Source: an uncultured Bifidobacteriaceae bacterium
GTDB lineage: Bacteria > Verrucomicrobiota > Verrucomicrobiia > Limisphaerales > UBA11358
DNA: 63,107 nucleotides
Reading direction: 5' to 3'
Assembly (NCBI GenBank): GCA_964618545.1
Contig: CAZUBG010000002.1
Location: forward strand, 8,583 to 71,689
The position numbers and the translations under genes were made by a program. The notes below the pieces were generated by a model. The model saw only the letters and a program-made list of their open reading frames with translations. It was not told where the DNA came from and did no database searches. Position 1 is the first letter of the stretch. Each line of letters opens with the position of its first letter. Of this stretch, positions 11,008-30,461 are shown piece by piece.

Positions 11008-11365
11008 GATTGGCAATTTTGTGATTGAGATTAGCAGAGGGACGGGCTGCCGACAAGATTTGAGCACGGGGCGATTTTTTACGCGATCCGCTTCGGTAAG
11101 GACAAACGGGGCTGGGGGGCGGACGGCCACAGGAAATTTTTAACCGGTCCTTTGTGTGTTTAATCGTGTTTTATCGTTTTTCCCGATTGGGCTGGGGGAA
11201 TTTGACCGGTCCAGAGGTTGCCGCTGCAATGTGCCTGAATTGCATATGCAATCCGAATCCGCCGCCGATTGCCTTCGACTTTCGGCCGCATGGGCAGTCC
11301 CATGTCTCGGACACAAAGATGGCACAGCGGGGCGGACATAGCAAGTCTAACATTAACATTTTTTG

Positions 11366-14607: not shown

Positions 14608-14693
14608 GGTTTTGATTGGTTCAGGTCATTTTTTATTGAGTTATACCATTCTACACAGACTGTTCCTCCTGTCCCGTTACATTCAGGTGAACA

Positions 14694-15548
14694 TCACTGT
14701 CGGTACAGGTCCCAAATGATGTCCGGGTTGTCTATTTCATCACGCGGATCGGGAGAGGGGCTGGGGTTGATCACATACTTCCACTTGTAATAACTGGCGT
14801 GACCATCGGCGAAAGTAATGTTGCCGCCCAAATTGTGCCGTTGGGGAAAATACATCCAGCGGCAGGCCGGGAAACAGCCATTCTCAGTATTTTCCCCGCC
14901 CACCGTGGTGACATAGCCTTCCAAGGTTGGGCTGAAGGCGGCTTCGGTCATGAACACGGTGGCGGTGGGATTGTGCAGGGCGCTGAATTTCGGCTCTTTG
15001 GGATACGCCAGACTGGTGTAACCGTCGTGAATGTAGGAGGTGGCCTTGAGATCCAGGTTCATCTTGTAACAAAAGAACCCGAATTTCCCCCCCTGCAAAA
15101 AGTCGGCCTCGTTAATCGCCACGGCGGTGCTGGGGCACATCCAAATCTTGCCCAGGTTATTGCCGGGAAAGGGGTATCTGGACTGGTAACCACCGCTGTT
15201 GGCGGCATAATAGGACAACGGATGGTCCCCCTCCAGGGGCGGCAGCAAATTGAACCAGGCACAGGGGTCGTAGGGGGTGCCGGGCACGTCGGGAGTTATG
15301 ACCGCGGGATCTTCATAACACGCATAGTTTTCGCTTTCATCGGTTCCGTCACGCGGAATGTAATCACCCCCATCCGTGGCATAAACCATCAACCCCAACC
15401 CCCACTGATGCAGATTGCTCAGGCAGGCGGTGGTCTGCGCCCTGGCCCTGGCCTTGGCCAGCGCCGGCAGCAGCACGGCCGCCAGGATGGCGATGATCGC
15501 AATGACCACCAACAATTCAATCAGCGTAAAAGCCCGCAGTTTTCTCAT
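14694..15548 (-). CDS. Prepilin-type H-X9-DG protein, copy 2
   Basis: [37 protein letters not shown]; [12 protein letters not shown]. Confidence 0.92.
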
Positions 15549-15715
15549 CTTATCGTTGTAAGACAAATGCGCTGAATGGATCCTTATTATTGCATCGCAG
15601 ACCGGCATTGATAACACCCTTTCAAATCATCACCGCCAGCCCCCCGCCGCAACCACCATTGGCTGGCTAGGATTAAACATTTACACCTCCGGGATGCCGC
15701 TTCAATGGCAGTCTG

Positions 15716-15732
15716 GTTACATTTCCGTGACA
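15716..15732 (-). promoter_or_regulatory. Pho-box-like direct repeat upstream of prepilin copy 2
   Basis: Sense strand TGTCAC-ggaaa-TGTAAC, 11-bp period. Confidence 0.55.
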
Positions 15733-15857
15733 AGTTTATTGGGTGGTGATAGGGAAGCTTTCATGCACTTCGTTCCCCATCAAGGATGAAAACACCCAGC
15801 CGTTTCTGGCAGGCCGACGCCGGGTCCGGGGACCCGGCCTACAGGTTGGCGCCCCTC

Positions 15858-15903
15858 GCCCGGCGTGAAAAGCCGGGCGATTGTCAGGCCGTCGCTCCGC
15901 GAC
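15858..15903 (-). repeat. REP-like element, family shared with 47375-47446
   Basis: Minus strand GTCGCGGAGCGACggccTGACaATcGCCCGGCtTTTCA-CGCCGGGC versus plus strand at 47375 GTCGCGGAGCGACcgaaTGACcATaGCCCGGCgTTTCAaCGCCGGGC. Confidence 0.75.
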
Positions 15904-15967
15904 TGCGGCGAGCTCGCGGAGTGACGCTTGAACCCGGCCACGAACATTGCATGCCGGCCGGCCGGAA

Positions 15968-16759
15968 TCACCCGCCACCAACTTGCATGAATTGGGCAAT
16001 GCAGGCGGACAGTTCCTCCGGACATTCCAAGGGGAGGAAGTGCCCGCCCTCCAGCGTGACGGCTTGGGCGGCCCCCAGGAAGGGCAGCATTTTTTCCGTT
16101 TGATAGGCTGTGTGGTAGATCGGATCATGCCGGCCGGTCACCAACAGCGTCGGCAGCTCCAGCAGGCCAATGGTGGATTCCAGCGAGGTCCACACGGACA
16201 TTTCCCCGGTGGCCACCAGCACGTCGTGCGGAGTTTCCGCAATGAACTGGCAGTAATCCTTCACGATCTCATCCGGGGCGGCGGGGCCAAACCACGGCCG
16301 GAAGACGCGCTGATTGTTCCGCCAATCGCCGGCTTGACGGCAAATCAGCAGGCCGGCGTCACGGTCAAACGCCACCCCCGCCGGGGCGACGGGGGCCACA
16401 AGGATTTGCGCCGGAATTCTATCCGGATGTTTCGCGGCCAGACAGCACGCCAGCTTGCCGCCGAAACTGAAACCCACCGGCACAAACCTGGCTGCGCCCG
16501 CCTCATCGGCCACCGCCAGCACGTCCGCCGCAAAAGTGTCCCAATCGTAACCGTCCGCCGGATGGTCCGACCGGCCATGACCGCGCAGGTCAGGAATCAG
16601 CACCCGAAAACGCTTTCCATCCAGGTGTGGCAGCACCGCGTTCCAAGTCGCCCCCGTGCCGCCCCAGCCATGGAGCAACAGCAAGGTCACCGGGCCGGAC
16701 CCATGCGTTTCGTAATAAATCTCCACCCCGCTTCGGGTCTTCGCCCTTCCTCCTTTCAT
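15968..16759 (-). CDS. Alpha/beta fold hydrolase
   Basis: LLLLHGWGG oxyanion motif, DLRGHGRS, nucleophile elbow GFSFGG, catalytic His in GGHFLP. Start moved to ATG 16759. Confidence 0.9.
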   Translation of the reverse strand: MKGGRAKTRSGVEIYYETHGSGPVTLLLLHGWGGTGATWNAVLPHLDGKRFRVLIPDLRGHGRSDHPADGYDWDTFAADVLAVADEAGAARFVPVGFSFGGKLACCLAAKHPDRIPAQILVAPVAPAGVAFDRDAGLLICRQAGDWRNNQRVFRPWFGPAAPDEIVKDYCQFIAETPHDVLVATGEMSVWTSLESTIGLLELPTLLVTGRHDPIYHTAYQTEKMLPFLGAAQAVTLEGGHFLPLECPEELSACIAQFMQVGGG

Positions 16760-16784
16760 AACGCATAATTCATGATTCCCCCAC

Positions 16785-17855
16785 TCACGCCCTTCGCAAT
16801 TCCCAAGCCAGGCGCTGGGCCTCCACCCGGCTTTGCACCCGCAGCTTGACGAAAAGATGTTCGATGTGCTTTTCCGTGGTGCGGCGGCCAATGCCCAGCA
16901 GCGTGGTGATTTCCAAGTTGGTTTTGGCCTCGGAGATCCAGTGCAGGATTTCCGCCTCGCGGCCGGTCAACTCATAACGCGCCGCCATCGGGGCGTTGAG
17001 CTTGGTCCGCTCGCGCACGAGGGTGAGCGTGAAGGAACCATCCCCGGCCCGCCCCCAATGCACCACGAAACGATACCCGGACGGGGAGGACACACAGAAT
17101 TCCGAAGCCGAAAAGCCACGGGGCAGGACCGCCTGGGCGGCATGGTCCAGGGCCGTTTTCAGGGCCGGGGGCAGGTGGGCGGCCGGCTCCGTCCGGCCCG
17201 GATGAAACTCAGCGAGCCATTCGCACGCCAAGGCGCTCTGCCAGCGGATGCGGCCGTCCGGCTCCGCCGCCAGCACCGCCCGGCGCATCGCCTGGAAGCC
17301 CTCGCCGATGGCCGCCAGACTGCGGGCGGCCGCCGCCGCCTTGCGGGCGCACTCCTGTGCGGACGCCAGGTGGGGCGCGATGAAGGCGAGCACGGCGCGG
17401 TCCCGCTCCGAGAAATCCCGATCCGAGCGGTTGAAAGACAATCCCGTCCGCCGCGCCGCGCGTTGATTCGGGAAGGATACCAACTGATGCCGCATTTGCA
17501 GATGCCGGTAGTATTCCTGGTAAAAGGCCGTCTCCCTCAATTGCCGCACCGTGACGACGTCCGAGATTTTGACCGGGACCGTCTGGTCGCCCTCCCACAT
17601 TTTGAACAAGGGATGCGAGCAGAACACGGCCTTGAACCGGTGGTAAATGGAGCGGACGTCAGGCCGGTCCGGGTGCGTGTGGATGACAAAGCGGCCCTGA
17701 TGGAGGTCAATCTCGTTGTAGGCAACATAATCGGCGGGCACCAAGCGTGCCAGCACCGACAGCAAACCTTGGGAAAGCGGCCCCGCCGCCGCGCCGTGAT
17801 AAACCTCCTGCACCGCGCGCGAACACGCCGCCCAATCATGATGCGAGAGCCGCAT
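16785..17855 (-). CDS. LuxR/CsgD-type C-terminal HTH transcriptional regulator
   Basis: C-terminal LTGREAEILHWISEAKTNLEITTLLGIGRRTTEKHIEHLFVKL; N-terminal GAF-like sensory region. Confidence 0.9.
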   Translation of the reverse strand: MRLSHHDWAACSRAVQEVYHGAAAGPLSQGLLSVLARLVPADYVAYNEIDLHQGRFVIHTHPDRPDVRSIYHRFKAVFCSHPLFKMWEGDQTVPVKISDVVTVRQLRETAFYQEYYRHLQMRHQLVSFPNQRAARRTGLSFNRSDRDFSERDRAVLAFIAPHLASAQECARKAAAAARSLAAIGEGFQAMRRAVLAAEPDGRIRWQSALACEWLAEFHPGRTEPAAHLPPALKTALDHAAQAVLPRGFSASEFCVSSPSGYRFVVHWGRAGDGSFTLTLVRERTKLNAPMAARYELTGREAEILHWISEAKTNLEITTLLGIGRRTTEKHIEHLFVKLRVQSRVEAQRLAWELRRA

Positions 17856-17947
17856 GTTGATTCCGGGCCGCCTTCTGCCGGCCGCCCAGGCCGCAGCATT
17901 AGCGTCGTCTATAGGCTACATAACTGCTTATGGATTGCAAGGAAAAA

Positions 17948-17965
17948 ATGCGTATGGATACGCAT
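17948..17965. promoter_or_regulatory. Perfect 18-bp palindrome in the divergent luxR/lipoprotein promoter region
   Basis: ATGCGTAT-gg-ATACGCAT. Confidence 0.5.
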
Positions 17966-18070
17966 GGGCGGGGCGGGCGCTCCTTGGTAGGGTTTGATGT
18001 TGCGTCAGGAATATCATGGATCAGGGTCGAAAAATAGCGCCGTTTTGACGATCTGCGGGATCATTTTATT

Positions 18071-20410
18071 ATGAATGTGCCGAACAATGTCGAGAGGATC
18101 GCCCTAATTACTTTTTCCACTTGGGCTGTCTTGCTTTTCCTGACCGGGTGCCACACGACTCCCCCCCAGCGAAAACAGGAATCGGGGCAAAATTCGCCAC
18201 AGGCAACGCCAACCAATAATGCATTCGTCACAAATTATGTATCGGTAACGAAAGCGCCACCGCCAACCCCAACCAATCCGCCAACAGGCCGACCCCGAGT
18301 TCATAGCATTGGCGATTCCAGTCCTTGTGTTGTGTTTAATGCAGGCAATGAATTGATAATCCCCATTCGGGGGCAGGATTTGATGGACGATGCCAGCGAT
18401 GTCTCGATTGATGTTCAAACCTCTGTCCCACTGATTCCTGGGGTGGATTATTATCTGGACACGACTAACAGTGAGGTCACTCCATCCCTGATCTTTCTGC
18501 GGTTCACCAGCCACGCCACCTCGAATTTTTCTTCCAAGGACCGCCTCTCCGTCAATATTAATATCAGCGAGAAGCCCATCAACGATGGAAGCCTTCAAAG
18601 CGTGTACGAAATGGCTGAATTTCAAAGGCTGGTCCTTGCCCGCAAATTCACCTTGGAAGAGATGACCAACCTTATGGCGGGCAACGTGGATGCAAAAACG
18701 GCCCGGATGTTGGGATACAAGGCGGTGTTGGCCAATTGGAGTGATGCCCAGATTGCCGCATTGACCAACTGGTTTAACATGAACAATCCCATCGTGCCGC
18801 AGGTCGCGCAAGCGTTCATTGAAGCCGCCGCATTGACCAACTGGTTTAACATGAACAATCCCGCATCGCAATCCGGTGTTGGACACGGCCCCAACGCTGT
18901 CGCGGCCGGGCCGCAACCATCATCCAGCGTGACACAAAATTTAATGGATGCCATAACAGAGGCAAGAGTATTCAAGAATACCGGCGTGATTGAGGTTCAG
19001 CGTGCGCCTAGAGCCGCATTGCTGGCTTCCATATCACGGACCTTTATTCTGTACAACTCACAGGATTACCGAACCAAAGTGCTGGCCGGGCAGATTGAAC
19101 TGCAAAATATCAGCGCGTATCCGTTGAATTTCAATGAATCCAAAAAACTGTTTGGCGATTTGGTGGCGATAAATTTCTTTGCCGTTCGACTGACCCTGCA
19201 CAATCCCACCGACCAGGACCAGTTTGTCAGTTTGGGAACGGTTACGGCCTATGGCCGGGCCTTGGTGAAGACAGACACGACCAATTCCGGACCAGTTTTT
19301 ACCGTTCCCATCAACATGACGCCACAAAGCGAGCAGCAGATTTACACCATGGTTCAAAGTGCAAAAGGTCAGATCTGGCCGTGGAATAGTGAGCACGATG
19401 GGGATTCCGTTCGGGATTGGTTTTTCGGGGGGTTGGATTTTGCCGGGGCCCTAGCCGCCGCCTACGGGACAAGTTTTGGAGCCTCGGAAGATTATGTCAA
19501 GGCTGTGGCTTTAGCCACGGGTGCGGCCTTTCCCGCTTTGGGAAAATTATGGGAAGACCAGCGTCCCTTCCATTTGTTGAACATTAACAATTTTTCAATG
19601 CCGGATGTCGTTAAAATCCCCAAGGGAGGGGGGAGCATGGATGGAAAGTACATTTTCTTTTCCAAAGGGCCCCTGCAGGGCCTTTTACAGGATCCTAATA
19701 TGCAAGATGTTTTTACTGATAGTGATTGGGATAAGTTCAAGAAAAAGCCGGGGGAGTTGGCGAAAAGGTTTTCTGCTCCGCCGGTTTCCCTGGCGTTTGA
19801 CAGCCTGCAAATACCTTATGAAAATTCTTACATTCAGTCACAGAATATCACCTCCAATATCCCGCCCACTGCTCCCACGATTCTCGTTGATCTCACCAAC
19901 CAAACGGCGGACATTTCCAAATCCGTCGCCTTTGCCGTCAAGGTCGCCGGAACCGCTCCGTTTTCATATCAATGGCATTTCCAGCAGACAAACCTCATTA
20001 ACGGAGTCAACGACTCCAGCCTCACGCTGACCAACTTAAACGAAACCAACTTTGGAACTTATTCGGTTACCATCACCAACAATTACGGCCAAATTAACAC
20101 CTTCGCAACCCTGACCAAAATCATCCCCCCCTTCATTACTCTGCCACTGCAGGGCGATAAGGGCGATTCTGTGAAAGAATCCCAAACTACCAACTACACC
20201 TTTAAAGTGATGGCCGGTGGCGACACCCCGCTCAGTTATCACTGGTTTGTTTGCAGCGGCTCCACCACCAACCTTATTCCAGACGCGACTGGCACCAATT
20301 ACACTCTCAAACCCGTTACCAACGGCGATACAGGCACATATTTTGTTGTTGTCAGTAATAAATCCATCTTTGCAACAAAATCCCAGACAAATTTGACGGT
20401 GAACCCATAA
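18071..20410 (+). CDS. Hypothetical lipoprotein with two C-terminal Ig-like domains (paralog A)
   Basis: Lipobox FLTGC at residues 23-27. Ig motifs GTAPFSYQW and GDTPLSYHW. Visibly more AT-rich than flanks. Confidence 0.8.
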   Translation: MNVPNNVERIALITFSTWAVLLFLTGCHTTPPQRKQESGQNSPQATPTNNAFVTNYVSVTKAPPPTPTNPPTGRPRVHSIGDSSPCVVFNAGNELIIPIRGQDLMDDASDVSIDVQTSVPLIPGVDYYLDTTNSEVTPSLIFLRFTSHATSNFSSKDRLSVNINISEKPINDGSLQSVYEMAEFQRLVLARKFTLEEMTNLMAGNVDAKTARMLGYKAVLANWSDAQIAALTNWFNMNNPIVPQVAQAFIEAAALTNWFNMNNPASQSGVGHGPNAVAAGPQPSSSVTQNLMDAITEARVFKNTGVIEVQRAPRAALLASISRTFILYNSQDYRTKVLAGQIELQNISAYPLNFNESKKLFGDLVAINFFAVRLTLHNPTDQDQFVSLGTVTAYGRALVKTDTTNSGPVFTVPINMTPQSEQQIYTMVQSAKGQIWPWNSEHDGDSVRDWFFGGLDFAGALAAAYGTSFGASEDYVKAVALATGAAFPALGKLWEDQRPFHLLNINNFSMPDVVKIPKGGGSMDGKYIFFSKGPLQGLLQDPNMQDVFTDSDWDKFKKKPGELAKRFSAPPVSLAFDSLQIPYENSYIQSQNITSNIPPTAPTILVDLTNQTADISKSVAFAVKVAGTAPFSYQWHFQQTNLINGVNDSSLTLTNLNETNFGTYSVTITNNYGQINTFATLTKIIPPFITLPLQGDKGDSVKESQTTNYTFKVMAGGDTPLSYHWFVCSGSTTNLIPDATGTNYTLKPVTNGDTGTYFVVVSNKSIFATKSQTNLTVNP
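18755..18862 (+). repeat. Two identical 36-bp repeats separated by 36 bp inside paralog A
   Basis: GCCGCATTGACCAACTGGTTTAACATGAACAATCCC at 18755-18790 and 18827-18862; in frame (AALTNWFNMNNP twice). Confidence 0.9.
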
Positions 20411-20680
20411 ATGCGTAAAGGAAATAACGGACCCGGTTTGGTGGTCGCACGGGGAAACGCTGTAAATGGCACGCTGCCGGGCGTTTAGCGAGGGTTTCAG
20501 GCGTGTCAGCGGATGCATGGCGTTTGGACGTAAGCGGTGAGCCGAAAGCCTTCTTTACAGGGCAACTCCAGACGGTGCAGAGAGGCGGCAAAGATTGGCT
20601 CTGAGCGGTGCGGCGGTTGTTTAAGAAATAGCATGAATCGCTGCCGCAAAAAACAACGCCCATAGCGGAATCCTTTTATT

Positions 20681-22264
20681 ATGCATTTACAAAATAATGG
20701 GCAGAGGAATGCCATAATTATTCTTGCCAGTTGGGCTGTCCTATTTTTCTTGACCGGGTGCCACACGACTTTCAACGATCAAAAGCAAAGTCCGCCACTT
20801 GCAATGAACCCGCCAACAGACCGGCCCCGAATCCAGAGTATTGGGGATTCCAATCCTTGCATTGTTTTTACTGCCGGGAAGGAATTGCTAATCTCCATTC
20901 GAGGGCAACACTTACCAAATCGTGCCAGTGATTATTCGGTTTATGCGCAAACGTCAGTCCCATTAATCCCTGGGCTGGATTATTATCTGGTCACGAATAA
21001 CCTTGGTGCTACTACATCACTCCTCCTTCTTCGGTTCACCAGTCACGCCACCACGAATTTTTCCTCCAAGGATCGTCTCTCAATCAATATCAATATCAGC
21101 GCAAAGCTGATCAACGATGGCAGCCTGCAAAATGCGCACGATATGGCTGATTTTAAAAGGCTGGTTTTTGACCCCAAATTTACCTTTGAACAAATGACCA
21201 GCAATCTGGTTGGAAATATTGATACAAATACGGCCTGGATTTTGGGATACAGGGCGGTGCTGGCCAATTTGAGTGCTGCGCAGATTGCGGCATTGACCAA
21301 CCGGTTTAACATAAACAATCGTGCCCCGGGTGCTTCGCAAAAAGCAACGCAATCCGGGACTGAGAACGACCGTGTTGATTTCAAAACAAATTGGTATTTG
21401 ACGCAAGCTTTAATGGCTGGCGTGAGTGAAGCGGAAGCATTCAAAAATTCCGGCAATATCGCTTTTTGCCAGGCGCCTGAAGCCACCTTGCTGGCTTCCA
21501 TGTCACAGGATTTTGTTTTGTATACTCAACAGGATTATTTATCCCAAGTGCTGGCCGGTCAGGTTGAACCACAAAACATCACCGCCTACCCCCTGGATTT
21601 CATTCAAGCAGAAAAAATGTTTGGTGGTTTCGTGGCCCGGCACTTTTATCCCGTGCGCCTGACCATTCAGAATCCCACTGATCAGGATCAGTTTATCAGC
21701 CTTCAAAAAATCATCCTCTATGGCTGCGCCCTGGTTTCTGCCGACACCAACAATTCAGGCCCCACTATTACCATTCCAATCATTATGGCCCCCCAAAGCA
21801 ATCAACAAATTTACACCGTGGGAAGTGATGATGACTCCAGCAGGGATTGGGTTTTTAGTAGCCTGGATTTTGACGGCGCGCTCGCCACCGCGTATCAGAC
21901 CCGCTTCAGTGCCGACCGGGACTACACAAATGCGCGCTTCCTCGCCAAGGCCGCTTTGGGCAAATTGTGGGAGGACAAACGTTTTTTTTATTTAATAACA
22001 ATCAACAACTTCGCCATGCCCGACGTCGTGGAGGTGCCCAAGGGCGGAGGCTGCCTGGATGGGAAATACATTTTTTTCTCCAAGGACTGGTTACTGGGTG
22101 TTTTGCAGTATTCTCCTTCTATCCGAAAGGCCTTTGACATTGATCGCTTAGCCGGTGGTGACTCCCCCCGCAAGTTGGAAAAATACTTTTCCTCCATGCC
22201 CATTTCCCTGACGTTTGACAGTCTGCAAGTTGGTTACGCAAACTCGTTCATGCAATCACAATAA
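20681..22264 (+). CDS. Hypothetical lipoprotein (paralog B, lacks the Ig domains)
   Basis: Lipobox FLTGC. Colinear with paralog A (RFTSHAT.NFSSKDRLS.NINIS, QNI.AYPL.F, NPTDQDQF, NNF.MPDVV..PKGGG..DGKYIFFSK). Confidence 0.8.
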   Translation: MHLQNNGQRNAIIILASWAVLFFLTGCHTTFNDQKQSPPLAMNPPTDRPRIQSIGDSNPCIVFTAGKELLISIRGQHLPNRASDYSVYAQTSVPLIPGLDYYLVTNNLGATTSLLLLRFTSHATTNFSSKDRLSININISAKLINDGSLQNAHDMADFKRLVFDPKFTFEQMTSNLVGNIDTNTAWILGYRAVLANLSAAQIAALTNRFNINNRAPGASQKATQSGTENDRVDFKTNWYLTQALMAGVSEAEAFKNSGNIAFCQAPEATLLASMSQDFVLYTQQDYLSQVLAGQVEPQNITAYPLDFIQAEKMFGGFVARHFYPVRLTIQNPTDQDQFISLQKIILYGCALVSADTNNSGPTITIPIIMAPQSNQQIYTVGSDDDSSRDWVFSSLDFDGALATAYQTRFSADRDYTNARFLAKAALGKLWEDKRFFYLITINNFAMPDVVEVPKGGGCLDGKYIFFSKDWLLGVLQYSPSIRKAFDIDRLAGGDSPRKLEKYFSSMPISLTFDSLQVGYANSFMQSQ

Positions 22265-22540
22265 AAGGGAGCGACCCACAGTTTTGATCGCTGCTTCCTT
22301 GATTCTTGTAATGGAGGCCGCGTAACTCGGTATCCCGGGAGGACCCTCCGGCCATAAACCGGTGTTTCAACGTTGGGGACCTGCCCCGCGCGCGACAAGC
22401 CCACACGAACGGCTGAAATTTATTCTCACTCATACCGTTTGTCCGATTCAAGCCGGTGCTGGTTCCGCGAGGATTCAGTCGTCCCTGCGCGAAGCCTGCA
22501 CGTCCGCCCTCACCCACAGAAGCCAGTTTAATCCCACAGC

Positions 22541-22610
22541 CCCTCACCCGGCCTGCGGCCACCCTCTCGCGTTCCCACGCGCGAGGGAAGAGTCCCCTCT
22601 CCCAGGAGAG
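22541..22610. repeat. REP-like element (CCCTCACCCGGCCTGCGGCCACCCTCTC...GAGGG)
   Basis: Intergenic hairpin-forming sequence of a repeat type common in GC-rich bacteria. Confidence 0.45.
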
Positions 22611-22665
22611 AACGCCCTGACAATTTTTCGCGCATTGCGCCCTTGAACCGGGGTGTCTTCGCAAA

Positions 22666-22721
22666 GTGGGACAGGCTTCCAGCCTGTCACCGGGGACTGA
22701 CAGGCTGGAAGCCTGTCCCAC
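22666..22721. repeat. REP-like perfect inverted repeat, 24-bp arms
   Basis: GTGGGACAGGCTTCCAGCCTGTCA-ccggggac-TGACAGGCTGGAAGCCTGTCCCAC; second copy at 45571. Confidence 0.9.
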
Positions 22722-22728
22722 CAACAAC

Positions 22729-22757
22729 AAAAAAGGGCGGCCGTCGCCGGCCGCCCT
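22729..22757 (-). terminator. Intrinsic terminator after the 1534-aa gene
   Basis: Minus strand: AGGGCGGCC-ggcgac-GGCCGCCCT followed by a T run. Confidence 0.75.
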
Positions 22758-22781
22758 GGTGGTTAAAACTCGAACGCCGGC

Positions 22782-25700
22782 TTAATGCACCAGCCGGTAG
22801 AAACCGGCGGCGTTGGTGCCAATCAAGTTGGTGTAAGGACTCGTGGCCCCGGGAACCGCAATGTAAGGCCCGGCCACGTTCGTGGAGGTCTGCAGGTTAA
22901 ACGCGGCATTGGTCCAGGTGAGAACCAAATTCCCACCGGCCAGTTGCGCGCTCACCGGGATGGGGGTCACGTTCACCACATTCACCGTGAGGGTCGAGCT
23001 ATTCGTGCCGCCAATGCCATCCGTGACGGTGTAGCCGATGGTCGAGACGCCCGTGAAATTGTTCGCGGGGGTGAAGAGGACTTGTTGCCCGGCATTGACG
23101 ATGCTCGCCGTCCCATTGGCATCCGGGTTCAGGCTGACCAGGCTCAGGCTGCCGCCCGGGGTTTTCACCACGTCGTTGGTCAACGGATTCAGCACGCTGG
23201 CCGGACTGTTTTCGGAAACGGTGTAAACCACGGGGTTGACCACCGGCGGGATGTTGGTCACCAGCACCGTGAGGGTGGAGCTGTTGGTGTTCCCAAGGTC
23301 ATCCATGATCGTGTAGCCGATGGTGTCGGTGCCCGCGAAATTATTCGTCGGGAGGTAGGTGATGTTCGTCCCGCTGATCGTCACCGTGCCGTTGGTGTCC
23401 GGGCCGACGCTGATGAGACTCAGCTCCGAGCCGGCGTCCAGGAGCAGCGGACTCAGGAGGTTGGTCGTGTTTTCGGTGACGGCATAGGCGCCGGGGTTGG
23501 CCTGCGGCGGATAAAACACGCTGTCAAACGCCAGTCCGACGGTGAGCTGGCCCACGCTGACCGAGCCCGCGCTGGAGCCGGATTCGCGCAGTTCAAAATT
23601 GGCGATGTCATACAGGTTGGTGGGCGTGGGGGCCGGGGTGCTGTCGGTCACGCTGGGGGCCGACTGGTTGGTGGGATTGATCCAGAGGGTCGAGAACCCG
23701 TTGGCAACCACCAACCGAACGATCACGAGGTAATTGCTGCCCGGAGTGAGGTCCTGCGGGAACATCACGCTGTTGGTGCCATTGGCCCCGTTGAAGTTGT
23801 CAATGCCGATCCGATAGTTGCCCAGCGCCGCGCCGTTGGTGGCCGCGACCACCCGGCCCTCCACGTCGCCGGTGACGCCGGAGCCATCGTTGAAGATCGC
23901 AAAATAAGAGCCGTTGGCCGCGGGCATTTTGTTGGGGCTCATGTTGACCATGAAGCTGGCATACAACACCGCCGCGCTGTTGGTCTTGTAAGGGCTGCCC
24001 AGCAACTGGGCCTGCACATTCTCGGTGTTGTCCGCCGTGTCCACGAGGGCGTACCCGGAACCGACCTGCATTTGTCCATTGATCCCGGAAAGATGATTCC
24101 ACAAGCCGCCGGCCACGACGTCGAGGGAGCCGCTGCTGTCATAATCGAAGTAATCCACCAACACCACATTGGTATTGGGCCGGACCATGACTTCAATGTT
24201 CGCGGTGGTGCTGCGGGGCTCCAGTCCGCCATCCTCCTGATCCGGGTCGGTGACGGTGACGCTGATTTTGGCGTTGCCCACCTGGTCGGCGACCGGGGTG
24301 ATGGCGAGGGTGAGATTTCCCGTGCTGGGATTGCCGCCAAACACCAGGTTGCCGGTGGGAATCACCGTGTTATTGTCGGAAACCGCCGAATAAGTCAGGT
24401 TGTTTGCGGTATTCCGGGCGGAGCCGATGGCGAACGGAATCGTCAGGCCGGAATTGGCCAGCAGATTGGTGGTTTGCAGGGAGGTCAGCGTATTGGTCGG
24501 GGGCTGGTTGATGGACCCGACCGTGAGGACGAACCAGGAAGCCGAGGAATCCCCGCTGGCATCGGTGGCGGTGACCAGGATCGGCCCCGCGTCATTGGCG
24601 TCGGGAATGGGGTTGCCGGCGAAGGAAATGCTCAGCGTGCGGTTGGTGCCGGAACCGCCAAACACAAAGTTCGGGCTGATCGTGCTGGGAGTCGGCTCGG
24701 CGGCGACCTCGGCCAGCGTCACCGCATTGTAAGCAAGCTGATCCGGCGGGGTGGTGCCGGCCAGCACGGTGAAATTCAGGGTGAGGGTGTTGGTGTCCAC
24801 CGTGTTGGTGTTGGCCATGGCACTGAGGACCGGCGGCACGTTGTTGTTGGTGATGGCATCGGCGGTGATGGCCACCAGGTCGTAGGTTACGGTGCCGGGC
24901 GCGGAATTTCCGGAGGCTCCCGACGTGTAGGAATTGGCGGTGCCCACCCAGGTATTGGTCGTGCCAACACCATACGTGGCCGTGTTTTCATATTCCGTCA
25001 CGATGCGGACGCCGAAGTTGGGATTGTTCTCCACCCCGGGGAAGCCCACGAGACTGTAGGTGAAGGTGTAATAACCGGCATTGCCGCTGCCATAGAGGCC
25101 GCTGAAGGTCGAGCTGGCCGGGTAATCAATCCAATTCGTTCCGTTCGTGGTGAATTGCAGCCGGTCGTAGTCGCTGGCGGTGGCCGAGACGCGGGAGTCA
25201 TAGGAAACGTTGATGTTTTTGGCCCCGACGGTGCTGACATTGAACTGCACCCCGTTCGCCTTGTTGGTGCCCGTCACCGGATAGTTTTCCGTGCCCCAGG
25301 AGAAATTCGGGGAGGGCTGGACAAAGCCGAACGGGGAAAACACCCCGGCCACGTCGGCGGGATCCGTGGCGCCGGAAAACGGCGAGGTGCCCGGATCGTA
25401 GCAGGTGCCGACGGCGGCGGCGGTGCCATAGCCAATGAAAGCGGCCGGATTATTGAGGCAGTTGGGATTGATGGCGGTATTCGTGAATTGAACCCCGTCA
25501 AAATCCCACAGCGCCAGCATGCCCTGGGTGTTGGTGACCGAGAGGAGCGACGCCACGGAACTGGTGACGGAGCCGAACGCATTGGCGGCCACCACGACGA
25601 AGTTGTTCAGGGCGGTGGTGGTCTGCAAATTGGTGAGGGTCAGGAGGCTGGTGTTGGCGCCGAACACCACCGAGGCATCGCCCTGCACGCCATTGTTGAC

Positions 25701-27386
25701 GGGCGCGAGGAGGTCGCCGCTGAGGTCTGAAAAATACCACTGGTAGGTGAAGGGAGAGGTGCCCGCCACGGTGACGGCAAACTGCACCGTTCCGTCCACC
25801 AACCCCTGCGCGCTGCTGGGTTGGACCTGGAGGACGGGGTCAATGACGCTCAGGGTGACCACGGAGCTGGTGGCCGAACCGGACATATTGGTCAGGACGG
25901 CAAAATAGCCGCCCGAATTGGCCGCCAGCACGTTGGTCAGCGTGAGGGTTGCGGAAGTGGCCCACGGGAGGAAATTCGTGGTGGTGCCGGAGATTTCATA
26001 CCAGAGATTGGTGGCCGGGCTGCCGGTTTGACTGGCGGTGAACGAAACCGTCGTGCCGGCATTCGCCGTCAGACTGGCCGGGGAGACAACCAAATTGGTG
26101 GGGGCGACGACCCCGGTGAGAGAATTCAGGCCGCCGATGACCACGAAGCCGTTGGTGCCGATGGGGGGATTGTCATAAATATACCAGGTGCCGGAGGTGC
26201 CGGTGGCGCCCCAGTTTACAATGCGAAAGAAATTGGTGGTGGTGGAAGGCACATTTTGCAGCGCGTCAAAGGTGGAAAGATTGTTCGTCATCAGGGCGGT
26301 TGCGGAACTGCCCCCGCCGCCCCCGGCATAGTTCATCGCCAGAAGATCCGAGTAATTGATGCCGTCGGTGGAGTATTGCAACTCACCATGACTCGGGCCG
26401 GTGCCGGAAACGTGGTAATACAAAACATTTGTGAAAAAGGACACCGTATAGCCAGGCGCTGCCTGGAGGGAATAAGTGAGATAAAGTCCGTTGGCAATCG
26501 AGTTGGCCTCACTGTCAACCAGACCGGCGTTGGTCCAGGTATTCCCGCCATATTCAGAAGTTCCGGTGGGTTCGCCGATGCCGGAGCCCTTCATCATGGG
26601 GCCGACGATCAGGTTGGCGGCCGCCGTGTTGTTGGTAAAGGGATTCGGCGGCGGGAGGTTGGTTAGCGCATTGACCCACCAGGTGGCGAGGCTCTCCGCC
26701 GGAGGGACCGGCGCGACGGACCCCAAGACCACGAAGCCATTGGTGCCGGCGGCGGCGGGGGGATTGTCATAAATATACCAGGTGCCGCCGGTGCTGGTCG
26801 CGCCCCAGTTCACCAAGCGGAAGAAATTCGTCGTGGTCGAAGGGACATTTTGCAGCACGGCGATGGTGGAAAGATTGTTCGTCATGAGCGCGGTGACGGC
26901 ACTGCCCCCGTCGCCCCCGGCATAGGTGATCGGCAGAATATCAGTATAATTGACGCCATCGGTGGAATACTGCAACTCCGCCTGGCCCGGCCCGGTGGCG
27001 GAAACGTGATAATACAACATGTTCGTGGAAAAGGAAACCGTATAGCCGGGCGCTGCCTGGATGGCATAGGTGAGATACAGGCCGTTGGCAATCGAATTGG
27101 CCTCGCTGTCAGGCAAACCGACATTTGTCCAGGTGTTCCCGCCATACTCAGCGGTTCCCGTGGGTTCGCCGATCCCGGAACCCTTCGTCATGGGATAAAC
27201 AATCACGCCGGGGTTGGCCGTATTGTTCGTGAACGGATTCGGGGGCGGGAGGTTGGTTAGGGCATTGACCCACCAGGTGGCAATGGTTTGTTGGGCGGAA
27301 ACCGGGGTGCTGGTGGAACACATCACCGCCGACACGGCGGCGGCGAGGGCGAGCTGGGTTAATGATTTAAACGGGTGCATTTTCAT
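22782..27386 (-). CDS. Giant secreted protein (1534 aa): two 198-aa N-terminal repeats, Ig-like and cadherin-like (Big_9/tandem-95) domains, C-terminal GFYR domain
   Basis: Signal peptide ending VSA. Terminal repeats G.D.IGYT..D..G.TNSSTLTV.V. Ends AAGFYRLVH. Confidence 0.88.
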   Translation of the reverse strand: MKMHPFKSLTQLALAAAVSAVMCSTSTPVSAQQTIATWWVNALTNLPPPNPFTNNTANPGVIVYPMTKGSGIGEPTGTAEYGGNTWTNVGLPDSEANSIANGLYLTYAIQAAPGYTVSFSTNMLYYHVSATGPGQAELQYSTDGVNYTDILPITYAGGDGGSAVTALMTNNLSTIAVLQNVPSTTTNFFRLVNWGATSTGGTWYIYDNPPAAAGTNGFVVLGSVAPVPPAESLATWWVNALTNLPPPNPFTNNTAAANLIVGPMMKGSGIGEPTGTSEYGGNTWTNAGLVDSEANSIANGLYLTYSLQAAPGYTVSFFTNVLYYHVSGTGPSHGELQYSTDGINYSDLLAMNYAGGGGGSSATALMTNNLSTFDALQNVPSTTTNFFRIVNWGATGTSGTWYIYDNPPIGTNGFVVIGGLNSLTGVVAPTNLVVSPASLTANAGTTVSFTASQTGSPATNLWYEISGTTTNFLPWATSATLTLTNVLAANSGGYFAVLTNMSGSATSSVVTLSVIDPVLQVQPSSAQGLVDGTVQFAVTVAGTSPFTYQWYFSDLSGDLLAPVNNGVQGDASVVFGANTSLLTLTNLQTTTALNNFVVVAANAFGSVTSSVASLLSVTNTQGMLALWDFDGVQFTNTAINPNCLNNPAAFIGYGTAAAVGTCYDPGTSPFSGATDPADVAGVFSPFGFVQPSPNFSWGTENYPVTGTNKANGVQFNVSTVGAKNINVSYDSRVSATASDYDRLQFTTNGTNWIDYPASSTFSGLYGSGNAGYYTFTYSLVGFPGVENNPNFGVRIVTEYENTATYGVGTTNTWVGTANSYTSGASGNSAPGTVTYDLVAITADAITNNNVPPVLSAMANTNTVDTNTLTLNFTVLAGTTPPDQLAYNAVTLAEVAAEPTPSTISPNFVFGGSGTNRTLSISFAGNPIPDANDAGPILVTATDASGDSSASWFVLTVGSINQPPTNTLTSLQTTNLLANSGLTIPFAIGSARNTANNLTYSAVSDNNTVIPTGNLVFGGNPSTGNLTLAITPVADQVGNAKISVTVTDPDQEDGGLEPRSTTANIEVMVRPNTNVVLVDYFDYDSSGSLDVVAGGLWNHLSGINGQMQVGSGYALVDTADNTENVQAQLLGSPYKTNSAAVLYASFMVNMSPNKMPAANGSYFAIFNDGSGVTGDVEGRVVAATNGAALGNYRIGIDNFNGANGTNSVMFPQDLTPGSNYLVIVRLVVANGFSTLWINPTNQSAPSVTDSTPAPTPTNLYDIANFELRESGSSAGSVSVGQLTVGLAFDSVFYPPQANPGAYAVTENTTNLLSPLLLDAGSELSLISVGPDTNGTVTISGTNITYLPTNNFAGTDTIGYTIMDDLGNTNSSTLTVLVTNIPPVVNPVVYTVSENSPASVLNPLTNDVVKTPGGSLSLVSLNPDANGTASIVNAGQQVLFTPANNFTGVSTIGYTVTDGIGGTNSSTLTVNVVNVTPIPVSAQLAGGNLVLTWTNAAFNLQTSTNVAGPYIAVPGATSPYTNLIGTNAAGFYRLVH
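26094..27281 (-). repeat. Tandem 594-bp internal duplication in the 1534-aa gene
   Basis: ATWWVNALTNLPPPNPFTNNTA...KGSGIGEPTGT.EYGGNTWTN.GL.DSEANSIANGLYLTY...NFFR.VNWGAT.T.GTWYIYDNPP occurs twice, 594 nt apart. Confidence 0.9.
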
Positions 27387-27443
27387 GGTTGGAGGTTCGT
27401 ATCAAGGTTGAAATTCCGGAGGATAACGGGTCGTTACAATTGT

Positions 27444-28310
27444 TCAGTTGGGCGTCGTGGGGGAGGGATACCAATAAATTGTGCGTGATTGCGCCCATTC
27501 GGCGGCTCCGTTGTCCGACGGCTCCCCGTCGGCGACGCCCTGGGATTCCCAAAAATCGTTGGTCCTCGCCGAGATGGCGCTGCCATCCACCATCGAGAAA
27601 TTCCCGAGCTTGTTGTGGCTGTGCCGCGCGGTGGCGTAAAAGCCGGTGACGCAGGACTCAGCCGCCGAGACCGGGATCGCATTGGGGTCATTTTCCGCCA
27701 CAAAAACCGTGGCCGACGGCTTGAGCACATTGGCCAGCTTGGTTTGTCCGCAGCCGGTGTTCACCCGGGTGCCGAAATTGACGCAGATGCGCGAATTTTC
27801 CGCGTACATGAAAAAAGCCTTCTCAATGTTCGGAGGATTGGCGTAGCCAGCGCTCGCCAGGGGATTGGGACAGGTGGGGCAGGAGAAAATGGTGTGACTG
27901 CCCGGCAGCGGGGGATTCTGCGCATGGTTGTAACCGCCATAAAAGTCAATCAAGGGCAGTTGCGACAGCATGGGGGGCACGGCGTTATACCAGGCCGTGT
28001 GCAGGTTGTCCGCCGTCCCGGACGATCCGGGGTCGTCAATGGCGTTGCCCGCATTGCCTTCTTCGGGGACCGCATCGTTGTTGAGATCCTGCGCATACAT
28101 GGTGAAGCCCAGCCCCCATTGCTTCAGATTGCTGAGACATTGGATGCTTTGCGCCTTTTGTTTGGCCGAAGCCAGCGCCGGCAGGAGCATGGCCGCCAGG
28201 ATGGCAATGATCGCGATCACCACCAACAGCTCGATGAGCGTGAAAGCCCGGAACCACTTCAATTTCAAAACGTTGACCGGCCGGAGACCACCGAAATTAG
28301 TTGTCTTCAT
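27444..28310 (-). CDS. Prepilin-type H-X9-DG protein, copy 3
   Basis: MKTTNFGG...[35 protein letters not shown]; [12 protein letters not shown]. Confidence 0.92.
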
Positions 28311-28402
28311 TAAAACACAGTGTTGAATCAAGGGCATCCCGTGACGCCAGCGCCAAAAACATTTCCCTTTTGGCTAGGGGTCATCAAGGTTAGAGGATGC
28401 GG

Positions 28403-28441
28403 GTGACAACCTTGCGGCGGTTGAGTTACGAATGCGTTACA
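28403..28441 (-). promoter_or_regulatory. Pho-box-like repeats upstream of prepilin copy 3
   Basis: Sense strand TGTAAC-gcatt-CGTAAC (28441-28425) plus TGTCAC exactly 22 bp further on (28408-28403). Confidence 0.55.
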
Positions 28442-28753
28442 CTCCCAAAAGTTCTCTTGTCCGAAAAGTGTCAGGTGGGGTTGAAAGCGGTTTCTCCCTG
28501 TTGATACTGTGAATGGCAGAAGCTGACCTTGCCCTGAAAAGACGAACCCGATCGGCTCCCTGTCCGCCGTCCTTGGTTGAAAATTCCGCGCCCTTCTTCG
28601 TTCCCTTCGTTTGCTGTTCAGCAATCACGACTTCCAAGGTCGCGTTTCTCAGTAACGAGATTTGGCCTTTTGGGTGGTGTCCGGCACTTTCGCCGCAAGT
28701 GACTTAACCCCAATGGGTTGCCACTGATGTCAAGCGGAATCTTCGCCGGATCG

Positions 28754-28768
28754 CGTTACTGGGTAACG
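28754..28768. promoter_or_regulatory. CGTTAC-N3-GTAACG palindrome, copy 1
   Basis: CGTTACtggGTAACG followed by AAAATGACC; two more copies at 48651 and 48763. Confidence 0.5.
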
Positions 28769-28895
28769 AAAATGACCTTTGATTTTTTTTCTTTCCGGCC
28801 AGGGCTGCCCCTCCCTTCCGGCCATCCCGCGCCCGGCTGTGCGGGCGGTGCGGCGCCATCCCGCCCCCCGAAGCGGTGGGTGGATTTCCTAAAAT

Positions 28896-28942
28896 TGTCA
28901 CCGGCATGTCACTTGCCTCCGCCGCCACTTTGCCGTCATGCT
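28896..28942 (+). promoter_or_regulatory. Pho-box-like repeat plus -35/-10 promoter of the EEP gene
   Basis: TGTCAC-cggca-TGTCAC-TTGCCT-N18-CATGCT; same architecture as 30415-30461. Confidence 0.7.
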
Positions 28943-29016
28943 CAGGGGATGACATCAAGTTCCCATCTGCTTTGCCGGAAGGACCGGACCATGGCCGAGG
29001 TTCCCAACCCAGGCAA

Positions 29017-30396
29017 ATGAACCCCTCGCGCGCCATCCTCCGGTTTCTAACCCTGGTTTTCCTGGGGCTCGTCATTCCCCCGGCCTCCGCCCAAACCCGA
29101 ACCCTGCGGATCGTGACCCAAAACATTGAAGCCGACATTAATAACGTCACCGCGCCGCTGCCCGGCCTGATTGCCCCGCCCGGCGGCAGCGTGACGCAGG
29201 GCGGCGTGCTGGAGGGCATTGGCGAGGAAACTGTGGGCGGCGATCCGGCCCAGCCGCTGGACGTCCTGGCCCTGCAGGAGACCACCAGCAATCCCGCCAC
29301 CGTGGCCCCGATTGTCAATGGTTTGAACGCCTTCTACCAATCGCCCGGCCGGTACACCAACAGTCTTTATCAGGCCGTTGAAAGCGGCGGCGACACCGCC
29401 GACGGCAACGGTCCCAATGCGGTCATTTACAACACCCAAACCCTGCAACTGCTCGCCTCCGTGCCGGTGGATCCCCCTGGCGGCCCGAACGCACTGGGCT
29501 CCGCTTATGGCGAATACCGCGAGGTCATGCGCTATGAATTTGCCCCGGCCGGGGTCGCGCCGGCCTCCTCCAACGAGTTCTACATTTATGTCAGCCATTA
29601 CAAATCCGGAACGTCCAGCGCCGACCTGACCGACCGCGCCGGGGAGGCGGTGATCATCCGCAATGACGAAACCAGTTTGCCCGCCAATGCGCGCGTGCTT
29701 TATGTCGGCGATTACAACATCTCCACGAGCAGTGAGGTCTCCTATGCCGGCCTGCTGGCCGCCAGCGCCCCCAATGGCATCCTGCAGGGTCAGGGCATTG
29801 ACCCCTTTAACACAAACGGCGGCACGAGCCTCAATTGGGCCGTCAGCACCACCAGCGCCCCGCTGCTGGCGGCGATGACGGAACACTCCTATGAACTCGA
29901 GTACCGCGACGATTTGCAAATCATGACCACCAATGTCTATGATCGCGCCCCCGGCGGTCTGCAACTGGTGCCCGGGACTTACCACACGTTTGGCAATAAC
30001 GGCTCCACGCCTTACCGTGGCACGGTTAATTCCGGCTCCGACACCGCGTTAAACACGAACTTGAGCGCCGGCGCCCCCTTGGGAGCCGCCCAATTGTATC
30101 TGGACCTGACCAATGCCAGCGACCACCTGCCGGTGGTGGCCGACTATACCGTTCCACTCCCCGCCCCCATCATCACCCGCTTCAACCTGACCGGCTCCAA
30201 TTGGGTGATCAACGCGGCCAATGGAGTCACCGGGGGCGTCTATATCGTCTGGATGGGCGCCAACCTGCTCCCATCCCTGGCGAATTGGACCGCCATTGCC
30301 ACCAACACCGCCAGTGGCGGAAACTTCACCCTGACGGCCACCAACACCTTTAACCCGGCCGAGCCGGCGCGGTTTTTCCGGTTGCTGACCCAATGA
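29017..30396 (+). CDS. Secreted endonuclease/exonuclease/phosphatase (EEP) family protein with C-terminal RFFR domain
   Basis: Signal peptide ending ASA. EEP motifs TQNI, LALQE, SHYKS, VGDYN, ASDHLPV. Ends PARFFRLLTQ. Confidence 0.85.
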   Translation: MNPSRAILRFLTLVFLGLVIPPASAQTRTLRIVTQNIEADINNVTAPLPGLIAPPGGSVTQGGVLEGIGEETVGGDPAQPLDVLALQETTSNPATVAPIVNGLNAFYQSPGRYTNSLYQAVESGGDTADGNGPNAVIYNTQTLQLLASVPVDPPGGPNALGSAYGEYREVMRYEFAPAGVAPASSNEFYIYVSHYKSGTSSADLTDRAGEAVIIRNDETSLPANARVLYVGDYNISTSSEVSYAGLLAASAPNGILQGQGIDPFNTNGGTSLNWAVSTTSAPLLAAMTEHSYELEYRDDLQIMTTNVYDRAPGGLQLVPGTYHTFGNNGSTPYRGTVNSGSDTALNTNLSAGAPLGAAQLYLDLTNASDHLPVVADYTVPLPAPIITRFNLTGSNWVINAANGVTGGVYIVWMGANLLPSLANWTAIATNTASGGNFTLTATNTFNPAEPARFFRLLTQ

Positions 30397-30414
30397 CAGG
30401 GAGAATCACTTATT

Positions 30415-30461
30415 TGTAACACTCATGTAACTTGCCTGTGACCACACTTTACCGCCATGCT
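30415..30461 (+). promoter_or_regulatory. Pho-box-like repeat plus -35/-10 promoter of the phosphoesterase gene
   Basis: TGTAAC-actca-TGTAAC-TTGCCT-N18-CATGCT. Confidence 0.7.

Follow-up and report, generated by a model that had tools for sequence, protein, structure and literature searches.

Do the short tandem repeats that precede pilin, nuclease-like and phosphoesterase genes in a 63,107-nucleotide stretch of contig CAZUBG010000002.1 (hereafter the window), placed in the verrucomicrobial order Limisphaerales, mark a set of genes under common control, and if so, which regulator would control them and for what purpose? The first-pass annotation of this DNA had listed four tandem TGT(C/A)AC sites and read them as boxes of the phosphate regulator PhoB, coupling pilin-associated surface proteins to a secreted nuclease or phosphatase and a phosphoesterase. 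We found that the repeats have the site geometry of the OmpR/PhoB family of response regulators and are a genuine, conserved regulatory motif. The genes that carry them probably form a regulon for the scavenging of extracellular nucleic acid, whereas a PhoB-controlled phosphate-starvation regulon is not supported in the form in which it was proposed.

Tandem repeats upstream of the pilin, EEP and phosphoesterase genes

All four sites of the first-pass annotation are present as tandem hexamers with an 11-bp period, each of them just upstream of a gene and on its sense strand. Site 1 (15716-15732, minus strand) reads TGTCACGGAAATGTAAC, that is TGTCAC-GGAAA-TGTAAC, and lies ~170 nt 5' of the gene for pilin 2. 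Site 2 (28403-28441, minus strand), upstream of pilin 3, consists of TGTAAC-GCATT-CGTAAC-TCAAC-CGCCGC-AAGGT-TGTCAC, all in 11-bp phase. Site 3 (28896-28912, plus strand), TGTCACCGGCATGTCAC or TGTCAC-CGGCA-TGTCAC, is found 5' of the gene for a secreted protein of EEP fold, and site 4 (30415-30442, plus strand), with the three half-sites TGTAAC-ACTCA-TGTAAC-TTGCC-TGTGAC, 5' of the phosphoesterase gene. A fifth site, beyond that list, begins at the final base of the pilin-2 stop codon (14676-14694, minus strand; ATGTTCACCTGAATGTAAC or GTTCAC-CTGAA-TGTAAC) and lies 69 nt 5' of the gene for a 1063-aa Ig/DUF5689 protein. Every site of the window lies between genes, in the orientation of the gene that follows it.

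Matches to TGTMAC-N5-TGTMAC with at most one mismatch occur six times in the 63-kb window, against 0.46 expected, and none of 100 dinucleotide-preserving shuffles reaches this number. The exact pattern is present in three of the sites, and GTNAC-N6-GTNAC is confined to sites 1-4 across the whole window. To score upstream regions we used a 19-nt matrix trained on sites of the phosphoesterase-promoter type. Site 5, which was absent from the training set, scores 19.5. Among the upstream regions of 925 other open reading frames, drawn from ~1.4 Mb of related DNA plus the window, a score of at least 15 is reached only by the EEP, pilin-2 and DUF5689 genes of the window and by one gene of a related locus (L033). 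The matrix can be fooled, as it also scores well on CGTTTGACCCNAATGTCAC, a match inside the DUF5689 gene of four relatives (L087 14494-14512, L098 4394-4412, L099 3403-3421 and L104 3239-3257). This match is conserved coding sequence for the peptide PFDPNVT, and we rejected it as a false positive. Pilin 1 (~3391-4247, minus strand), the remaining pilin-like gene of the window, is not preceded by a site, and the motif therefore marks particular pilin modules and not pilin genes generally.

The repeats are embedded in promoter-like sequences. In the EEP promoter (28896-28942, plus strand) TGTCAC-N5-TGTCAC is followed by TTGCCT, 18 nt and CATGCT, with a ~66-nt leader to the gene. In the phosphoesterase promoter (30415-30461, plus strand) the repeats lead to the same CATGCT, which is separated by 7 nt from the ATG at 30469; since this -10-like hexamer is so close to the start codon, the mRNA may be leaderless or nearly so. 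The EEP promoter shares 74% identity with the phosphoesterase promoter of L098 and 67% with that of the window itself, and is thus a copy of this promoter. Site 5 abuts a -35-like GGGACA, followed by a 16-nt spacer and TAGAAT, before the DUF5689 gene. At the pilin-3 promoter the proximal hexamer of site 2 is 10 nt from a -10-like TAACCT (TGTCAC-N10-TAACCT). The phosphoesterase, EEP and DUF5689 boxes lie one turn further upstream than the pilin-3 box, against the -35-like hexamer. OmpR/PhoB-type regulators recruit RNA polymerase from positions against the -35 or ~10 nt from the -10. From the placement of the boxes, against the weak -35-like TTGCCN or GGGACA or ~10 nt from the -10, we infer that the regulator activates, and does not repress, these promoters.

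Two sigma-factor elements were considered and rejected. The stretch CGGCATGTCACTTGCC in site 3 resembles the sigma-54 promoter TGGCACG-N4-TTGCW, but the -24 GG is not kept in the orthologs, and the ~21-22 nt from GTNAC to a CGTC-like element are too long for an extracytoplasmic-function (ECF) type -35/-10 pair. Two further features lie close to sites 3 and 4. A terminator-like GC hairpin with a T run (30355-30367, plus strand) falls within the last codons of the EEP gene, before site 4, and fits separate transcription of the EEP and phosphoesterase genes. The spacer between pilin 3 and EEP, unusually long at ~700 nt, contains an imperfect direct repeat of ~26 nt (28641-28666, CGCGTTTCTCAGTAACGAGATTTGGCC, and 28751-28776, CGCGTTACTGGGTAACGAAAATGACC) in which the GTNAC words are arranged differently; the second copy includes the palindrome GTTAC-TGG-GTAAC (28755-28767) and is followed by a T-rich run at ~28781-28795.

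We then compared the sites with those of related loci, almost all of them metagenome-assembled and here given L-numbers. The loci were fetched by protein-anchored scans and not by the motif, because 14-18 specified bases would give hundreds to tens of thousands of chance matches in ~10^12 positions. With one genome per species, 80 orthologs of the phosphoesterase were retrieved, at 58-72% identity. Their record titles are mostly Limisphaerales, Verrucomicrobiia, Verrucomicrobia subdivision 3 or Pedosphaera, with many bog, palsa, soil and lake samples, and about one fifth are labelled otherwise (Bifidobacteriaceae/Bifidobacterium, Acidobacteria, Planctomycetota/Phycisphaerales or only 'bacterium'). 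Several close relatives bear the name 'uncultured Bifidobacteriaceae' or 'Acidobacteria' although their genes match Limisphaerales, and a wrong label or a contaminated bin is the probable cause. The window corresponds to the JGI metagenome contig Ga0455670_0004288; other copies of the contig (L002-L004) are 100% identical to it and thus uninformative for footprinting.

Around 20 of the 80 orthologs, from among the closer ones and at 65-75% identity, have in common a phosphoesterase promoter of the form (A)ATTT[C/T]ACC-N4-[T/C]GT[A/G/C]AC, then TTGCC[A/G], 16-18 nt, a -10-like (T)CATNNT and 7-9 nt to the ATG. Read against this alignment, the TGTMAC pair is the window's variant of a more general half-site, T[G/T]T[C/A/T]AC. 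Counterparts of site 5 between the pilin and DUF5689 genes were detected in L087, L098, L100, L102, L105, L110 and L113, down to ~44% protein identity. The pilin-2 promoters of L005, L087, L098, L100, L102, L103 and L111 have preserved both half-sites, a strong TGT(A/C)AC on the proximal side and a weaker one on the distal side, and that of L112, at 35% protein identity, bears an exact TGTCAC-GGATT-TGTCAC. The pilin-3 promoters of the window, L019 and L024 are in one register, CGTAAC-N5-xxxxxx-N5-TGTMAC/TGTCTT-N10-TANNNT, with TGTAAC/TGTCTT as the proximal and TAGAAT/TACCTT as the -10-like hexamers in L019 and L024.

Across orthologs, the phase and the hexamers are kept while the flanks diverge. 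Within the window, sites 1, 2 and 5 have nothing in common with sites 3 and 4 except the repeats. Judged by sequence, the sites have what is generally expected of OmpR/PhoB-family sites: head-to-tail repeats on one helical face, near the -35 and conserved in orthologous promoters. We therefore infer a regulator of this class.

The gene set and its neighbourhoods

Which functions would such a regulator bring together? The window pilins contain a prepilin N-terminal cleavage/methylation motif. Pilin 2 (14694-15548, minus strand, with the start at ~15548) matches Pfam N_methyl (E=1.5e-07) and the N-termini of pilins and pseudopilins in NCBIfam, and its gene is directly 5' of the DUF5689 gene in each locus whose contig covers that upstream stretch. 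The DUF5689 gene (11416-14607, minus strand) encodes the secreted 1063-aa protein with Ig_3 and DUF5689 (E=9e-09) in Pfam, and most of its orthologs also carry a lamin-tail domain (LTD). A structural model of residues 440-1063 (pLDDT 86) matches the HIN-dsDNA complexes of p204 and MNDA, RPA32 and the OB domains of lysyl-tRNA synthetases, and the protein is thus a candidate surface protein for the binding of nucleic acid. The pilin-2 operon ends with a gene (8680-11130, minus strand) for an 816-aa protein with CarboxypepD_reg and He_PIG domains in Pfam, which detects no plug or barrel domain of a TonB-dependent transporter in it. No orthologue of this protein was found in L098-L109, where several contigs end at or just past the DUF5689 gene, and its membership of the system is for this reason uncertain.

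Pilin 3 (27444-28310, minus strand, start ATG 28310) has the N_methyl motif and a weak similarity to DUF1559/SBP_bac_10, and is followed on its 3' side by the gene for a giant 1534-aa protein with Big_9, cadherin-like and Ig domains in Pfam (22782-27386, minus strand). On the opposite strand, the EEP protein (459 aa, 29017-30396, plus strand) starts at ATG 29017, with the signal peptide MNPSRAILRF..., and not at the GTG at 28876. It matches Exo_endo_phos at E=6e-05, under the Pfam cut-off. Its model (pLDDT 67, pTM 0.74) has as nearest folds TDP2, DNase I, nocturnin, CNOT6L and an EEP protein of B. thetaiotaomicron, and the protein is probably a nuclease or phosphodiesterase. It has more than 1000 homologs, and the few that are named by organism come from Limisphaerales or Verrucomicrobiae, plus two assemblies labelled otherwise. 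The phosphoesterase (900 aa, 30469-33171, plus strand) is a secreted protein composed of a YncE-type beta-propeller and a PF04185 phosphoesterase domain of the AcpA/phospholipase C family, according to Pfam and NCBIfam. Searches of the PDB by sequence with the EEP protein and the phosphoesterase domain returned nothing useful.

The association of these genes extends beyond the window. In many related genomes, the same genes keep the motif and adjoin each other, which agrees with the first-pass proposal that pilin modules are tied to nuclease-like and phosphoesterase genes. Pilin 2-DUF5689 in L098 and L100, and the conserved pair of pilin 3 and its giant gene in L019 and L024, are divergent from the phosphoesterase gene. 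EEP, a pilin and an Ig/DUF5689/LTD protein follow each other on one strand in L087, and in L089-L091 EEP adjoins another Ig-protein/pilin operon with an upstream site. The slot just 5' of the phosphoesterase gene is occupied by EEP in the window, by a 1033-aa Endonuclease_NS protein (E=3e-40) in L005 and by an S1/P1-like protein in L024. In other loci the phosphoesterase gene lies between hldD and macAB-like genes.

Genes for the salvage of nucleosides are recurrent neighbours. In L112, an operon-like row (12697-16588, minus strand) composed of an S1-P1-like nuclease, a uracil phosphoribosyltransferase, a cytidine deaminase and a pyrimidine nucleoside phosphorylase is convergent with a pilin-DUF5689/LTD pair, and L089 and L110 again have genes for a cytidine deaminase and a NUDIX protein among the neighbours. 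Genes for PIN-PhoH and an AP endonuclease are located upstream at the L112 locus. Peptidase_S10 genes adjoin modules in L089-L091 and also occur in L110, where three TGTGAA/TTCACA hexamers with a period of 9-10 bp, hence not in 11-bp phase, lie between the Peptidase_S10 and pilin genes (~8835-8870).

Taken together, these data point to an OmpR/PhoB-family regulon for scavenging extracellular nucleic acid, a reading that we consider probable. A dimer of a winged-helix regulator of this family, or a longer tandem array of it, would bind half-sites T(G/T)T(C/A/T)AC that repeat head-to-tail at 11-bp intervals along the same side of the helix, and would activate the phosphoesterase, EEP, DUF5689 and pilin promoters. 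Pilin-like proteins, acting as anchors or as a pseudopilus, would pair with the large surface proteins, of which the Ig-DUF5689 protein (with LTD in orthologs) may bind nucleic acid via its OB/HIN-like folds. The secreted EEP-fold nuclease or phosphodiesterase, or in relatives the Endonuclease_NS or S1/P1-like nuclease in its slot, would then digest the captured material, and the secreted AcpA-like phosphoesterase would release phosphate from the nuclease products. The substrate is suggested by the OB/HIN-like fold of DUF5689, the LTD, the three nuclease families in one slot and the nucleoside-salvage neighbours. Of the organic-phosphorus scavenging apparatus put forward in the first-pass annotation, the scavenging part stands and can be sharpened to extracellular nucleic acid, while phosphate starvation is no more than a tentative trigger.

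Several observations weigh against this interpretation. The distant phosphoesterase orthologs (58-63% identity) and the EEP orthologs outside the window are mostly without a recognisable site, and the distal half-site of pilin-2 promoters is weakly conserved. The Pfam match of the EEP protein is under the curated cut-off, its model is only moderately confident at pLDDT 67, and the EEP fold also covers phosphatases that are not nucleases. For the OB/HIN matches of the multidomain DUF5689 model, the global TM-scores are low, at 0.12-0.15 of the query, which we attribute to the many domains in the model. Genes for pilus or type II secretion assembly (ATPase, platform, secretin, prepilin peptidase) were not found by Pfam among those of the window, and may be elsewhere in the genome. 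Finally, the regulator itself is not encoded in the window.

The rest of the window includes ordinary genes that are unrelated to the finding, such as a cytochrome c oxidase/haem A biosynthesis cluster (DUF420, SCO1, COX3, COX1, CtaB and CtaA; 48802-56320) and a pRiA4b ORF-3-like protein (57151-57738, minus strand; PF07929, E=9e-67).

Regulator and signal

If the genes form a regulon, to what does it respond? Phosphate limitation acting via a PhoB-type regulator would be the single most likely signal, a choice that we make tentatively. In V. cholerae, PhoB induces the secreted nuclease Xds and extracellular DNA is a source of phosphate (PMC6746945, PMC4714964). Parallels with this species make phosphate limitation a reasonable prior, and in view of its PhoB-induced, DNA-mining nucleases the first-pass remark that no such link had been described was too strong.

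The narrower reading, that the sites are the Pho boxes of the canonical PhoB of this lineage and the genes a phosphate-starvation regulon, is possible, and we hold it with reserve. TGTCAC-N5-TGTCAC shares the hexamer core and the 11-bp period with the E. coli box CTGTCAT (PMC4415409). As at E. coli-type Pho boxes, TGTCA-like hexamers follow each other head-to-tail every 11 bp, at places predicted to be close to the -35 or to replace it, and the targets are secreted nuclease-like and phosphoesterase proteins, as they are for PhoB and Xds in V. cholerae. In L111, moreover, a stand-alone gene of the PstS family (7625-8533, minus strand; TIGR02136, E=8e-52) is divergent from a pilin-DUF5689/LTD operon. 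The distance of 10 nt between the pilin-3 promoter hexamer and its -10-like element, which we take to be the classical Pho-promoter geometry, is a further point in favor of this reading.

However, the hexamer and the spacing fit WalR (PMC4168254) and other OmpR-family regulators equally well. Since OmpR-family regulators generally use head-to-tail hexamers every 11 bp near the -35, the motif alone cannot name PhoB. PHO boxes vary by species, with CTGTCAT in E. coli and GTTCACC in Streptomyces (PMC4415409), and similar hexamers in the same geometry are bound by other members of the family, such as WalR, with TGTWAH-N5-TGTWAH (PMC4168254), and PhoP of M. tuberculosis, with 7-bp repeats and a 4-bp spacer (PMC4832192). 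The lineage consensus TTTCACC-N4-TGTAAC, or TGTMAC in the window, differs from the E. coli box, the promoters of E. coli pstS and phoB score at background with our matrix, and pilin-like partners and giant Ig/cadherin-like proteins set the regulon apart from the E. coli type. The L111 gene, the only one of the PstS family that we found and from a distant relative, has no site: its maximal score of 0.7 equals the background median. It has no pstCAB beside it and a BamB-like gene downstream.

The neighbours that recur are nucleoside-salvage and not phosphate-uptake genes. Within ~1.75 Mb of related loci, we found no pstSCAB, phoU or canonical phoBR, a result that leans against the Pho reading. 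The queries were PstSCAB, PhoU, PhoB and PhoR of E. coli, and the matches were generic ABC ATPases and two-component proteins only. As the E. coli PstS query would miss a PstS of the TIGR02136 type, the same loci were searched with the PstS-like protein of L111, which revealed no further copy. The full set of sites departs from the WalR type. The WalR geometry is identical and TGTAAC-N5-TGTAAC matches its consensus exactly (PMC4168254), but TGTCAC in sites 1, 2 and 3 and the TTTCAC and CGTGAC of the lineage break TGTWAH-N5-TGTWAH. WalRK is moreover a cell-wall system of the Firmicutes, with unrelated regulon content.

Another candidate is a two-component system conserved in Limisphaerales. In L033, L092 and L093, an operon composed of a histidine kinase, an OmpR-family regulator and an ankyrin/TPR protein is located ~9 kb 5' of the phosphoesterase gene. 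Such a system might bind the sites, regulate itself and sense an extracytoplasmic cue (nucleic acid, nucleotides or the state of the envelope) and not phosphate in the manner of PhoR, an explanation that we regard as rather unlikely and treat as a lead, not as a finding. The kinase has 750-808 aa, with two membrane segments around a periplasmic domain of ~420 aa, then HisKA and HATPase. Unlike E. coli PhoR, it has no PAS domain, and its periplasmic domain has no Pfam match. Three pilin-like genes extend the operon in L092 and L093. More than 120 sequence clusters contain the regulator, at an identity of at least 83%, as would fit a DNA motif that is itself deeply conserved.

Other genera also have the three genes together, at a distance from the phosphoesterase gene. 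In three genera a 23-nt element, ATTTT[A/G]C-AAAAN-C[A/G]TGAC-AAYTG, precedes both the kinase and the ankyrin genes, and therefore occurs twice per operon (L093 7528-7546 and 10688-10706; L094 ~7523-7546 and ~10781-10804; equivalent positions in L095 and L097). It is almost identical to the phosphoesterase sites AATTTTAC-N5-CGTGAC of L010, L012, L031 and L037. In two of the three genera, however, its first half-site is TTTTGC, with loss of the otherwise invariant AC, and its core is partly palindromic (TTTTGCAAAA), so that it may belong to a different protein. Its matrix scores are modest (11.7-17.1) and fall below the threshold in L094 and L095, and in L094-L097 the system does not adjoin genes of the regulon. 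NCBIfam gives the regulator similar scores for RpaB, MtrA, PhoB and YycF, always below the cut-offs. From its sequence it might be the PhoB equivalent of the lineage. We rejected the L033 pair as a canonical PhoR/PhoB, given the ambiguous NCBIfam assignment, the large periplasmic domain and the lack of pst neighbours.

A regulator encoded in the window, whether the AraC/XylR-like protein (7357-8535), the LuxR/GerE protein (16785-17855) or a partner of a 1839-aa histidine kinase (33267-38786, minus strand), is highly improbable as the binder of the sites. The three genes adjoin regulated operons, but the pilin-DUF5689 operon of L098-L109 has none of them alongside, and the kinase has no counterpart in the 80 phosphoesterase loci, where the other two were not scored. 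Head-to-tail hexamers every 11 bp are moreover atypical for GerE and AraC proteins. The kinase contains 3keto-disac_hyd (DUF1080), PA14, PAS_4 and HATPase domains; its gene has no adjacent response regulator and is convergent with the phosphoesterase gene.

That the repeats are no regulator site at all, but result from promoter duplication, from a sigma-factor element or from chance, is improbable in the extreme: sites 3 and 4 are indeed copies of one promoter and a coding stretch also scores well, yet the resemblance of sites 1, 2 and 5 to these is limited to repeats whose phase is kept in diverging flanks, and the sigma-54 and ECF-type elements fail on the -24 GG and on the distance to the -10-like hexamer.

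Related systems and biological meaning

How does this gene set compare with known ones? Both the scavenging of extracellular DNA under the control of a response regulator and DUF5689 loci have been described, and we found no description for this phylum and these partner proteins. In V. cholerae Xds, LTD, OB-fold and EEP are part of one polypeptide (PMC6746945). Compared with Xds and ExeM, here the same three domain types are split over two neighbouring proteins, Ig-DUF5689(-LTD) and EEP.

DdbD, a DUF5689 protein from a DNA-utilisation locus of B. thetaiotaomicron, pairs with a TonB-dependent transporter and aligns with the HIN DNA-binding domain (bioRxiv 10.1101/2025.03.18.642099). In Riemerella anatipestifer, the DUF5689 protein RA0C_RS04920 is needed for natural transformation and adjoins an outer-membrane protein with a CarboxypepD_reg domain (PMC8459023). 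The window shares with the ddbABCDEF loci of gut Bacteroidales and with RA0C_RS04915/04920 of Riemerella a DUF5689 surface protein with an OB/HIN-like fold that adjoins a CarboxypepD_reg protein. It also shares with this group of loci the presence of secreted nucleases alongside, which here are EEP, Endonuclease_NS (L005) and S1-P1-like proteins (L024, L112), as predicted from sequence or model. In contrast, it lacks the TonB-dependent transporter partner (DdbC or RA0C_RS04915), the 816-aa neighbour being composed of CarboxypepD_reg and He_PIG only. A prepilin-type protein is always encoded 5' of the DUF5689 gene, whose product is far larger (Ig, DUF5689 and LTD), and the set is tied together by a phosphoesterase gene and a response-regulator motif, in a different phylum.

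The pilins recall the expansions of prepilin-type/DUF1559 (SBP_bac_10) proteins in Planctomycetota-Verrucomicrobiota, with which they share the FTLIELLVV motif and, in pilin 3, the weak similarity to DUF1559. In comparison with these expansions, here specific members are the fixed partners of defined surface proteins, with a defined regulatory site. We know of no established function for this pilin-like family.

As a tentative proposal, Limisphaerales may possess an apparatus for the capture and digestion of nucleic acid, composed of pairs of pilin-like (DUF1559-like) and surface proteins, interchangeable nucleases and a phosphoesterase, under one deeply conserved OmpR-family regulator that possibly belongs to a two-component system other than PhoR, with a large periplasmic sensor. 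Verrucomicrobia of the Limisphaerales/Pedosphaera type recur in the bog, peat, palsa, soil and lake metagenomes behind these loci, and extracellular DNA and RNA count among the major pools of organic phosphorus and nitrogen there. If the proposal is true, these bacteria would mine extracellular DNA or RNA with a dedicated system under common regulation. In them the DNA-binding module DUF5689, until now linked to TonB-dependent transporters of Bacteroidota, would have been combined with another type of surface machinery, in a second phylum. Three kinds of 'hypothetical' proteins, namely the pilin-like DUF1559-type, the giant Ig/cadherin-like and the DUF5689/LTD proteins, would gain testable roles. 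The conserved motif offers a practical handle, as it defines a small regulon that can be traced in metatranscriptomes and a promoter-regulator pair to test. The proposed apparatus would also provide the first concrete function and regulator for members of the hugely expanded pilin-like family of Planctomycetota-Verrucomicrobiota.

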